Below, one piece after another: positions 5,577-6,877 of a stretch of 64,000 nt of DNA. Below the pieces are notes generated by a model. The model had not been told where the DNA came from. It saw only the letters and a program-made list of their open reading frames with translations, and searched no databases. Origin of the DNA: Escherichia phage WPEC5; the sequence record PV654397.1; one strand, written 5' to 3'. The first letter of the stretch is position 1; every line of letters begins with the position of its first letter. A program made the position numbers and the translations under genes.

Positions 5577-6128
5577 CTATAGATAGCTGATTAGTAAGTT
5601 TTCTTTTTGTACAAGATACTCTAATTCTTGTTTCGCAGTTCCGATGAAGTTCTGTGTCATAAGATTATTATATCCTGCTTCTCGATTTTGTCCCTTCGAA
5701 TAACGAGAGATGTGACATAAATTTACACCAGCCACCTCTGCACTAGCATGTTTGCCATATGCATAATTATCACGAAGTTTTTTAAGTTCAGCATAAGTCA
5801 TTTCATAACTATAGCTATGTGAGTGACCCTCTGGAAACAATTCAAGTGATTTTAATGGAGACAGGCGACTTTTGTCAATGATATAGTTCATTTCTTCTTG
5901 TACTTCACGTTGTAACGCATCTTCTAATGACTTATCAGTACTTTCAACTGTTCCACCACATGCACCCAACAATCCATCCCAACGCACTTGTAGGAGTACT
6001 AAGTTAACCACTGGGATATCATTTAGTTCATAACCAGAGTATGGGGTACATTCTTTTGCATAAAAGAAACAGAATACAAAATTTGCACGTTTCCCCAGTT
6101 GTCCCAGTGGTACTTCAGCTTTACTCAT
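5577..6128 (-). CDS. hypothetical protein with weak Nudix-like signature
   Basis: REVQEE resembles the RE-U-x-EE core of the Nudix box but upstream G-x5-E spacing is not canonical; assignment tentative. Confidence 0.5.
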   Translation of the reverse strand: MSKAEVPLGQLGKRANFVFCFFYAKECTPYSGYELNDIPVVNLVLLQVRWDGLLGACGGTVESTDKSLEDALQREVQEEMNYIIDKSRLSPLKSLELFPEGHSHSYSYEMTYAELKKLRDNYAYGKHASAEVAGVNLCHISRYSKGQNREAGYNNLMTQNFIGTAKQELEYLVQKENLLISYL

Positions 6129-6877
6129 CGCATTCGTTCCTTAATTATAGTTTCAACCTGTGGAATTGCTTTCGTCGCAGGTTTGATGACCTTCTCATTA
6201 AAAAGAAAATCATTATCATTTTTTCGGATGTTAACATTTACACTATAGCATGGAAGTGCACCAGCTAGTCTGGACCATACCAGTACTGTATCACTACTTC
6301 CAATAACTACAACTGTATCATTTTCTGTGAGACTTTTCAACACTTCATTTCGTTCTTCATAAATGGGGAGACGTACCCCATCAACGTAGCGATGATACTC
6401 ACCAATCATCACTACATTTGGTTTTGCAAAAACATCAGCTTTAGGGATATATGGTTCATAACCACAATTAATGACATTGTAATCATCAGTATTAATAGAA
6501 AAGTTCTCAATTACTTCACATAAATTGCCGTGTAGTTTGAGTTCGGTTCCACCAATTCTAGTATATAGATCATCCATATTAGAAGTCATGTGTAAAAAAC
6601 AATCACCATACAAATCTTCTAATGATTTAATAAAGTAATGCATTTCATTAGGATGACATTCACCTAATTTTACACGCAATGTATTATAAAATGAATGAAC
6701 TACATGATACTTAGAACTAAGTCGTGCAATGTTACAAACATCATTAATTTTGAAATTGTCCCACAACCCATCATCAAAGCGGAATGGTTCCATCCCACTC
6801 TCAACTGAAAGACCTGCCCCTGAAATTATAAGTAATCTTTTGTTCCCAGCATTTTGTATAAATTTATCTGATATCAC
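6125..6877 (-). CDS. Sir2-family (sirtuin-like) NAD-binding protein
   Basis: LLIISGAGLSVESGMEPFRFDDGLWD matches sirtuin GAGISxxSGIPxFR...GLW motif. Confidence 0.7.
   Translation of the reverse strand: MISDKFIQNAGNKRLLIISGAGLSVESGMEPFRFDDGLWDNFKINDVCNIARLSSKYHVVHSFYNTLRVKLGECHPNEMHYFIKSLEDLYGDCFLHMTSNMDDLYTRIGGTELKLHGNLCEVIENFSINTDDYNVINCGYEPYIPKADVFAKPNVVMIGEYHRYVDGVRLPIYEERNEVLKSLTENDTVVVIGSSDTVLVWSRLAGALPCYSVNVNIRKNDNDFLFNEKVIKPATKAIPQVETIIKERMR

Follow-up and report, generated by a model that had tools for sequence, protein, structure and literature searches.

The window analysed here, a stretch of 64,000 nucleotides from Escherichia phage WPEC5 (sequence record PV654397.1), encodes a Sir2-family protein (a sirtuin) whose gene overlaps that of a Nudix protein. 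With them begins an operon of five genes, conserved in Rak2/PBECO4-like jumbo phages, which runs on the minus strand of the window from 6877 down to 3447 and in which identifiable domains with intact catalytic residues are encoded by tightly coupled genes of conserved order. The published reading of such neighbourhoods, namely an operon for processing RNA ends that depends on nicotinamide adenine dinucleotide (NAD), with the sirtuin as the ADP-ribosyl donor enzyme, is the one we tentatively favour from its genomic context, with a confidence that stays somewhat short of even. The genes are, in order of transcription:

6125-6877, minus strand: Sir2, a classical CobB-like sirtuin of 250 amino acids (Pfam, PHROG, CobB structures, AlphaFold model)
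5577-6128, minus strand: predicted NUDT16-like Nudix pyrophosphatase of 183 amino acids (Pfam, PHROG, NUDT16/X29 structures)
5247-5567, minus strand: cyclic-phosphate-processing receiver-like (cREC) domain protein of 106 amino acids (Pfam cREC_REC, PF20274)
4948-5250, minus strand: small Cys-rich protein of 100 amino acids with a hydrophobic N-terminal segment (PHROG 14661 'membrane protein', 1.6e-39)
3447-4886, minus strand: PIN-PhoH, a PIN endoribonuclease domain joined to a PhoH ATPase, the final gene of the block (Pfam PIN_4 4.5e-20, PhoH 8.7e-45)

Between 3,400 and 9,700 the window shares 98.8% identity with Escherichia phages EC.P1, Ecwhy_1 and fEgEco12, 96.8% with TH47, which is classified as an Asteriusvirus, and about 81% with PBECO4. 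As judged from sequence, the window belongs to an Asteriusvirus-type E. coli jumbo phage, the relatives being jumbo phages of the Rak2-like group, about 350 kb in size. Sir2 and Nudix are already annotated in GenBank relatives (e.g. Ecwhy_1 and fEgEco12) as 'Sir2-like protein' and 'NUDIX hydrolase'. All genes discussed in the following lie on the minus strand, including the three open reading frames (ORFs) singled out by an earlier, sequence-only reading of the window, i.e. Sir2, Nudix and a nucleotidyltransferase, which are located exactly where that reading had placed them. It had missed cREC, the small Cys-rich membrane protein and PIN-PhoH, the first and last of which define the published neighbourhood.

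The Sir2 gene starts with a GTG codon at 6877, preceded by AAGGAG. Its product matches Pfam SIR2 (PF02146) with 71.3 bits (cut-off 24; E-value 1.3e-19) and PHROG 2162 with an E-value of 8e-74, and its best solved relatives are the E. coli CobB structures 1s5p and 6rxj (2e-21). An AlphaFold (AF2) model, obtained from 22 homologues with a mean predicted local distance difference test (pLDDT) value of 89.8, is also closest to CobB in Foldseek (E-value 5e-16, TMq 0.77, TMt 0.84), followed by Sir2Af and SIRT5. Residues G20, G22, S27, G28, N100, D102, H116 and G117, which correspond to the NAD-binding GAGxS/SxxSG and N-x-D motifs and to the catalytic His-Gly pair, are invariant in the 22 homologues, down to 33% identity; the loss of NAD-binding residues, which the sequence-only reading had named as an observation that would speak against it, is therefore not seen. 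Other features differ from those of CobB. The four-cysteine zinc module is degenerate, with only C119 and C138 present from the catalytic His to the (F/I)GE motif, neither of which is conserved in the clade (the distant homologue P0048 alone retains a CxxC...CxxC arrangement); the clade carries an insertion of its own after the (F/I)GE motif; and, in the alignment with CobB, the arginine of the class III Y-x-x-R motif is out of register, with L67 at the position of the CobB arginine. The best partial NCBIfam matches are CobB-type deacylase models, at about 85-89 bits as compared with equivalog cut-offs of 243-320, and the CobB equivalogs NF040867 and NF001755, for which the cut-offs are 318-320, are matched with the same 85-89 bits.

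The choice between a deacylase-type and a NADase-type Sir2 can thus be answered at the family level: the protein is a classical, CobB-like member of PF02146, though far below the CobB equivalog cut-offs, and the earlier view that its role could not be decided from the sequence was too pessimistic. No match was found to the PADLOC defence families at E-values up to 0.01, or to Pfam SIR2_2 at E-values up to 0.1, and a defence-type Sir2 was rejected because of these two results. No sensor or partner (SLOG, HerA, TIR or Argonaute) is fused or adjacent to Sir2, its neighbours being Nudix, cREC, PIN-PhoH and an HslV-like protein, and no Macro domain was detected among the scanned ORFs of the block and its flanks, which sets the block apart from sirtuin-Macro toxin-antitoxin pairs. 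Sir2 is presumably the operon's NAD-consuming ADP-ribosyl transferase. Its clade is found in 986 phage records, mostly of enterobacterial phages (Escherichia 373, Salmonella 287, Klebsiella 131) and with T5 among them, so that its carriers are about a thousand sequenced phages of T5-like, rV5-like and Rak2-like jumbo types. In one metagenomic jumbo-phage contig (IMGVR_UViG_2030936005_000022; L008) Sir2 is split into two overlapping ORFs at 6001-6749, as the result of either a frameshift or a sequencing error.

The stop codon of Sir2 and the start codon of Nudix share a 4-base ATGA overlap (6125-6128), which bears out the earlier description of a stand-alone sirtuin-like ORF overlapping a Nudix ORF. 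The Nudix protein matches the Pfam family Nudt16-like (PF22327) with 67.8 bits (cut-off 27; E-value 1.4e-18), besides Pfam NUDIX (2.4e-7) and PHROG 9999 (7e-79), and aligns with human NUDT16 structures at an E-value of 9e-12, the whole range for NUDT16/X29 being 9e-12 to 1e-10. The sequence-only reading was correct as to the Nudix identity, and its description of the signature as partial has to be dropped: the box is complete and of the NUDT16 type (G58 G59 ... D65 ... R74 E75 ... E78 E79), with a spacing one residue longer, as in NUDT16, and G58, G59, E62, D65, R74, E75, E78 and E79 are invariant in 15 distinct homologues. The cREC gene begins nine bases downstream of the Nudix gene, and its product matches PF20274 with 83.4 bits (cut-off 27; E-value 1.9e-23). 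Residues D8, D9, D47, H48, D49, H85 and S86 are invariant, D8, D9, D47 and D49 being the receiver-like acidic residues. The family was defined by Iyer et al. 2021 (PMC7824862), and the cyclic phosphodiesterase activity is put forward as a prediction in the relevant parts of that paper and of a later one (PMC9503650).

The start codon of the small Cys-rich protein overlaps the stop codon of cREC, again as ATGA. Its residues C47, C52, C82 and C92 are invariant, and it holds the slot between cREC and PIN-PhoH in all 15 jumbo-phage loci that could be tested. An exported or membrane-anchored small protein would be an oddity within an otherwise cytoplasmic enzyme operon. Between 3200 and 8000 no terminator-like sites were found, promoter-like sites occur at chance level, and the scan of this interval for promoters and terminators as a whole is indistinguishable from that of shuffled sequence. 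Directly upstream of Sir2 lies a hydrophobic ORF of 66 amino acids (6887-7087, minus strand), which is conserved in TH47 and in a PBECO4-type locus (L003), and which is preceded by a sigma-70-like site at 7129-7100 (10 of 12 matches), such sites being found at chance frequency here.

The conservation of the block was studied in a sample of 80 loci, obtained by scanning a Sir2 alignment against viral contigs; 64 of them are not from jumbo phages, and the test of gene order was limited to the 15 jumbo-phage loci in which the sequence extends far enough downstream. Every one of these (15/15) has Sir2, Nudix, cREC, the small membrane protein and PIN-PhoH in this order, over a range of Sir2 identity from 90% down to 43%, with PIN-PhoH always downstream. 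In 9 of the 15, Nudix and cREC form a single ORF, a fusion that Pfam confirms for GAP32_120. Because of the translational overlap, and of synteny in every related jumbo phage examined, the sequence data support Sir2 and Nudix as a functionally coupled pair related to NAD or ADP-ribose.

What precedes the block differs between lineages. Reading towards Sir2, 15 loci (L004-L018), of the GAP32, CBB, BF, Yersinia, Salmonella and RaK2 types, carry NadM (an NMNAT-Nudix protein), a hypothetical gene and NadV, in some cases an extra gene, then 2H and a zinc-binding protein, with 2H missing only from the RaK2 locus (L005); in four more distant loci (L049, L062-L064) NadV or NadM is found near Sir2. In Pfam, the 2H protein of these relatives falls into the anti-CBASS family Acb1 (5.7e-16). 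NadM, NadV and 2H precede the Sir2 block in most Rak2-like relatives, as seen at 6570-15376 of GAP32 (NC_019401.1; L085), so that in these phages the region has the appearance of an island that combines NAD salvage with anti-defence. When the window and the complete, unannotated TH47 genome were searched by tblastn with the GAP32 proteins, no match to NadM, NadV or 2H was obtained in either. In the window, as in the PBECO4-type locus, ClpP-like and HslV-like genes take their place, and a second ClpP lies further upstream:

7110-7772, minus strand: HslV-like peptidase (PHROG 1040, 1.9e-23)
8053-8661, minus strand: divergent ClpP-like protein (Pfam CLP_protease 4.4e-4; PHROG 26024)
11594-12289, minus strand: second, clear ClpP (Pfam 1.3e-41)

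On the other side of the block, about 2 kb downstream of PIN-PhoH, a small strain-variable cassette is found at 840-1395. Here fEgEco12 and TH47 carry a 'WGR domain-containing protein' gene of about 1 kb, and the window has unrelated sequence with an ORF of 126 amino acids (835-1215) that has no Pfam match. The WGR-domain gene of fEgEco12, considered as a possible NAD-related neighbour, was dropped, being absent from the window.

The neighbourhood of sirtuin, 2H, Nudix, cREC and PIN has been described by Iyer, Burroughs, Anantharaman & Aravind (Viruses 2022; PMC9503650, section 3.7.3), with Serratia phage BF as the type example. That section proposes that a distinct clade of sirtuins strips 2'-phosphates from RNA as KptA/Tpt1 does, while its partner enzymes would resolve cyclic phosphates or else deal with ADP-ribose cyclic phosphate. 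The three configurations given there were all recovered in this work, i.e. that of the jumbo phages, that of the rV5-like phage JES2013 and that of the T5-like phage chee24, and the sirtuin clade is thus repeatedly linked, in three phage groups that are unrelated to each other, to genes for the processing of RNA ends. In JES2013 the order is Rnl1-type RNA ligase (6.7e-15), cREC (1.5e-14), Sir2 and a 'nucleotide pyrophosphohydrolase'; the latter name is the depositor's annotation, with no Pfam match here, and the protein is MazG-like according to the same section of PMC9503650. The array is adjoined by an AAA_33 P-loop kinase and a metallophosphoesterase. In chee24 Sir2 is closely followed by a fragment of a HAD_SAK_2 RNA-repair phosphatase, just under the Pfam cut-off. 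In the 64 non-jumbo loci, jackhmmer detected no cREC, Nudix, Rnl1 or Pnkp up to 6 kb from Sir2, a result that is limited by sensitivity, since the Pfam scan of the annotated JES2013 neighbour did find cREC.

The window also encodes two enzymes that may be partners of the block in trans:

23393-24535, minus strand: T4 Rnl1-type RNA ligase (Pfam RNA_lig_T4_1 4.6e-14, T4_Rnl1_C 2.6e-16)
21638-22570, minus strand: T4-type polynucleotide kinase/phosphatase, Pnkp (Pfam HAD_PNKP 5.8e-43, AAA_33 1.1e-12)

They belong to a loose cluster of genes for the processing of nucleic-acid ends that extends from 13137 to 24535 on the minus strand, the other members being:

13137-13928, minus strand: metallophosphoesterase
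13948-15366, minus strand: ATP-dependent DNA ligase
16577-16996, minus strand: Pth2-like peptidyl-tRNA hydrolase, a weak sub-threshold match
17499-18257, minus strand: second metallophosphoesterase, with no tblastn match in TH47

After Iyer et al. 2022, we infer an RNA 2'-phosphate as the substrate and the following series of chemical steps for the NAD-dependent processing of RNA ends. The sirtuin would place ADP-ribose derived from NAD+ on a phosphorylated RNA end and remove the 2'-phosphate in the manner of KptA/Tpt1, with nicotinamide and ADP-ribose cyclic phosphate as the products. cREC would then open the cyclic phosphate of the RNA end or that of ADP-ribose 1''-2'' cyclic phosphate, and the NUDT16-like Nudix would cleave the ADP-ribose by-product, or RNA-linked ADP-ribose, to AMP and ribose phosphate. 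RNA binding and cleavage would be contributed by PIN-PhoH, and sealing by the phage Rnl1 and Pnkp. This reading is preferred because the sirtuin clade adjoins RNA-end enzymes in the three phage groups, because translational coupling joins the sirtuin to two enzymes that suit phosphate derivatives of ADP-ribose, and because genes for nicotinamide salvage flank the sirtuin in relatives, the adjacency of NadM and NadV being what would fit an enzyme that consumes NAD and releases nicotinamide.

Several observations weigh against it. The proteins to which the sirtuin is most closely related, CobB and SIRT5, are protein deacylases, and its sequence shows no feature that points specifically to RNA. 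PIN nucleases and T4-type Pnkp neither leave nor need a 2'-phosphate, so that it is not evident why a Tpt1-like step would be needed. Rnl1 and Pnkp are 15-17 kb away from the block and not adjacent to it; the 2H protein of the relatives, which counts as RNA-repair support, matches the Acb1 family and is absent from the lineage of the window; and the synteny among jumbo phages is in part inherited rather than independently selected. Furthermore, the literature searches brought up no experiments on phage sirtuins, on cREC or on phage NUDT16-like Nudix proteins.

A more specific proposal, which we regard as possible but doubtful, is that the CobB-like sirtuin clade of phages may be a nucleic-acid-directed, NAD-dependent ADP-ribosyl/2'-phosphotransferase, i.e. 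a non-homologous replacement of Tpt1/KptA and not a deacylase, with cREC and the NUDT16-like Nudix as a pathway for the clean-up of ADP-ribose cyclic phosphate. If this were true, action on RNA would be shown for a sirtuin for the first time, and the cREC/Nudix clean-up would be a previously uncharacterized pathway.

The fold and sequence matches of Sir2, the best of which are E. coli CobB, Sir2Af and SIRT5, would suggest a protein deacylase module, and so would its best partial NCBIfam matches, which are CobB-type models, and the retention of all canonical catalytic residues. A CobB-like lysine deacylase would act on host or phage proteins, the Nudix enzyme (with cREC) would hydrolyse the O-acyl-ADP-ribose formed, and NadV/NadM of the relatives would recycle the inhibitory nicotinamide. 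Indeed, hydrolysis of O-acetyl-ADP-ribose is known for Nudix enzymes, and the adjacency of NadV and NadM in relatives suits any sirtuin reaction that releases nicotinamide. However, the NCBIfam scores are far under the equivalog cut-offs, the zinc-binding cysteines have been lost across the clade and the Y-x-x-R arginine is out of register (L67), and the recurrent association with genes for cREC, RNA ligase, kinase/phosphatase and PIN-PhoH is left unexplained, so that, on balance, a deacylase module appears rather unlikely.

Improbable is also a role in counter-defence, in which Nudix and cREC, and possibly Sir2, would destroy ADP-ribose-derived messengers or toxic metabolites of host TIR, Sir2 and ADP-ribosyltransferase (ART) systems as part of an anti-defence island. 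The upstream genes of the relatives are what makes it attractive: NadM and NadV, which form the NARP2 pair, lie directly upstream in GAP32, CBB, BF and RaK2-type phages, and all of these except RaK2 (L005) carry the Acb1-like 2H phosphodiesterase. Moreover, degradation of soluble ADP-ribose derivatives by the cREC and Nudix domains of phages is proposed in PMC7824862 and PMC9503650. A NAD-consuming sirtuin has, however, no obvious role in the destruction of signals; the lineage of the window has lost precisely the known anti-defence neighbours, yet has kept the Sir2 block; and the partners found in rV5-like phages are RNA ligase and kinase genes rather than anti-defence genes.

The sequence-only reading had combined Sir2 and Nudix with the nucleotidyltransferase into a phage manipulation of NAD or ADP-ribose metabolism. 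In a model built on it, the latter enzyme would be an NMNAT and, with Sir2 and Nudix, would rebuild or tune the NAD pool. The part that stands is the Sir2/Nudix pair, with NadM and NadV beside it in relatives; the link to the nucleotidyltransferase, the rebuilding of NAD and a defence-type NADase role do not. The enzyme in question is:

30711-31244, minus strand: HIGH-superfamily nucleotidyltransferase of 177 amino acids (motifs, PHROG 3041, predicted fold)

Both motifs on which the earlier assignment relied, HxGH and SSTxxR, are present (H16-H-G-H19 and Y135-SSTQMR141) and conserved in homologues, and are common to all of the HIGH superfamily, so that the assignment is sound at the superfamily level, and nothing beyond it was obtained: Pfam CTP_transf_like is matched with an E-value of 0.079, below the family cut-off, and PHROG 3041 'cytidyltransferase' with 8e-52. 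The weak matches to NCBIfam NadD models (E-values 0.003-0.0075) count in favour of an NMNAT, as does one depositor's label 'NMNAT protein' on a cyanophage homologue, but their scores are 16-17 bits, as compared with cut-offs of 112-150. A direct search of PDB sequences gave no matches, and a profile of the family built from 42 sequences ranks PPAT (1.3e-4), archaeal NMNAT (2e-4) and NaMNAT (2.8e-4) about equally. The AlphaFold model (pLDDT 82.8), which has a predicted HIGH-type fold, gives in Foldseek PPAT first (1.3e-4), then NaMNAT (4e-4) and FAD synthetase, all near 1e-4 and with TM values of about 0.6. The protein is therefore equally distant from NMNAT and PPAT, and likewise from FAD synthetase, and NMNAT identity was rejected, as Pfam, NCBIfam, PDB, family profile and AF2 with Foldseek all give similarity at the superfamily level only. 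The possibility that it belongs to coenzyme A or teichoic-acid biosynthesis, which had been named as contrary evidence, is left neutral by these results, which assign the enzyme neither there nor to NAD synthesis.

Genomic context points in the same direction. Sir2 and the nucleotidyltransferase gene are 24 kb apart, and the start codon of the latter shares bases with the stop codon of a Dam methylase gene (31241-31765; Pfam Dam 2.3e-32), a pairing that is kept in GAP32 at 39% identity. GAP32 has genuine NadM and NadV next to Sir2, 22 kb from its Dam-nucleotidyltransferase pair, and the GAP32 NadM has no tblastn match to the nucleotidyltransferase of the window. The phyletic profiles barely overlap, the 537 phage records with the nucleotidyltransferase being mostly from cyanophages (366 Synechococcus, 50 'Cyanophage' and 20 Prochlorococcus, besides 32 Escherichia) and the 986 with Sir2 mostly enterobacterial. 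Its family comprises 2336 representative clusters, in many of which it forms the N-terminal domain of large proteins; the fusion partners (DUF5824, DUF6267, Hint and Zeta/AAA_33) are not informative as to the substrate. In fEgEco12 (g163), S-MbCM25, S-H35 and metaG-MbCM1 the gene is labelled 'ribonucleotide reductase A', and elsewhere 'tail fiber protein', which look like errors of annotation transfer. Because of the distance, the coupling to Dam and the different phyletic distribution, the nucleotidyltransferase is judged to be a HIGH-superfamily member of the cyanophage 'cytitidyltransferase' family for which no connection with the Sir2 block could be detected. Since, in addition, the complete genome of TH47, which is 96.8% identical, has no homologue of NadV, NadM or 2H, reconstitution of NAD is unlikely in the lineage of the window, and a model that combines it with Sir2 and Nudix is, in our judgement, very improbable. 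Equally far-fetched is a Sir2 that would act as a NADase effector for host shut-off or superinfection exclusion like ThsA, DSR and SIR2-HerA: Sir2 domains are common NAD-depleting effectors, according to the part of PMC9503650 that deals with them, but that of the window matches none of the PADLOC Sir2 models and not SIR2_2, stands alone with 250 amino acids and no sensor or partner domain, and adjoins NAD-synthesizing genes in relatives.

With ThsA, DSR1/2 and SIR2-HerA the phage protein shares the superfamily and the potential to cleave NAD, but it differs from them in the lack of model matches and of sensor or partner domains, and in adjoining ADP-ribose-processing enzymes. Phage NAD salvage through NadV and NadM (NARP2; Osterman et al., bioRxiv 10.1101/2024.02.11.579819, as summarised in PMC13464706) is represented by the NadM and NadV genes directly upstream of the Sir2 block in GAP32, CBB, BF and RaK2, whereas it is absent from the window and from the whole TH47 genome, and the nucleotidyltransferase of the window is no BLAST-detectable homologue of NadM. 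The latter protein is instead homologous, over nearly its full length and with 29-34% identity, to the C-terminal half of a cyanophage 'cytitidyltransferase' (S-PM2 p139; T4-like gene cluster 190), the difference being that p139 is fused to DUF6267 and the window protein is a stand-alone, Dam-coupled one that lacks DUF6267. Human NUDT16 and Xenopus X29, which act in U8 small nucleolar RNA decapping and as hydrolases of ADP-ribose and non-canonical caps, have in common with the phage Nudix the Pfam family, the spacing of the box, the catalytic Glu and a near full-length alignment; the phage protein, in contrast, is part of a Sir2/cREC operon and is fused to cREC in relatives.

The similarity to KptA/Tpt1 is one of proposed chemistry, in which ADP-ribose from NAD would be transferred to a 2'-phosphate of RNA, with release of nicotinamide and ADP-ribose cyclic phosphate, and of comparable gene partners (2H/cREC, Nudix, RNA ligase). 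KptA/Tpt1 has the ART fold, as opposed to the Rossmann fold of sirtuins, with no similarity in sequence or structure, so that the analogy is drawn from context only. E. coli CobB (class III; PDB 1S5P, 6RXJ) and the phage Sir2 share the Rossmann core and the GAGxS/SxxSG, N-x-D and His-Gly motifs (TMq 0.77, TMt 0.84), but at 27-29% identity, with the zinc cysteines not conserved, the clade insertion after (F/I)GE and the arginine for succinyl recognition out of register in the phage protein.

The closest known system is the first configuration of section 3.7.3 of PMC9503650, with which the window agrees in the phage group (Rak2-like jumbo phages), the sirtuin clade, the Nudix and cREC partners, the PIN-containing gene and the gene order. 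It differs in having ClpP-like and HslV-like genes instead of 2H, NadM and NadV, in encoding Nudix and cREC as separate genes rather than as a fusion, and in the conserved small Cys-rich membrane protein within the block, which is not met in that section. The system is therefore an already known one and not of a new kind, its novelty being low because the neighbourhood has been described computationally and its genes are annotated in near-identical genomes. What remains of interest is the biochemistry of a widespread clade of phage sirtuins, of cREC and of the phage NUDT16-like Nudix, the activities of which have been predicted only. In this respect the minimal block of Asteriusvirus, since it comes free of 2H, NadV and NadM, offers a clean five-gene test case for the action of a sirtuin on RNA ends.

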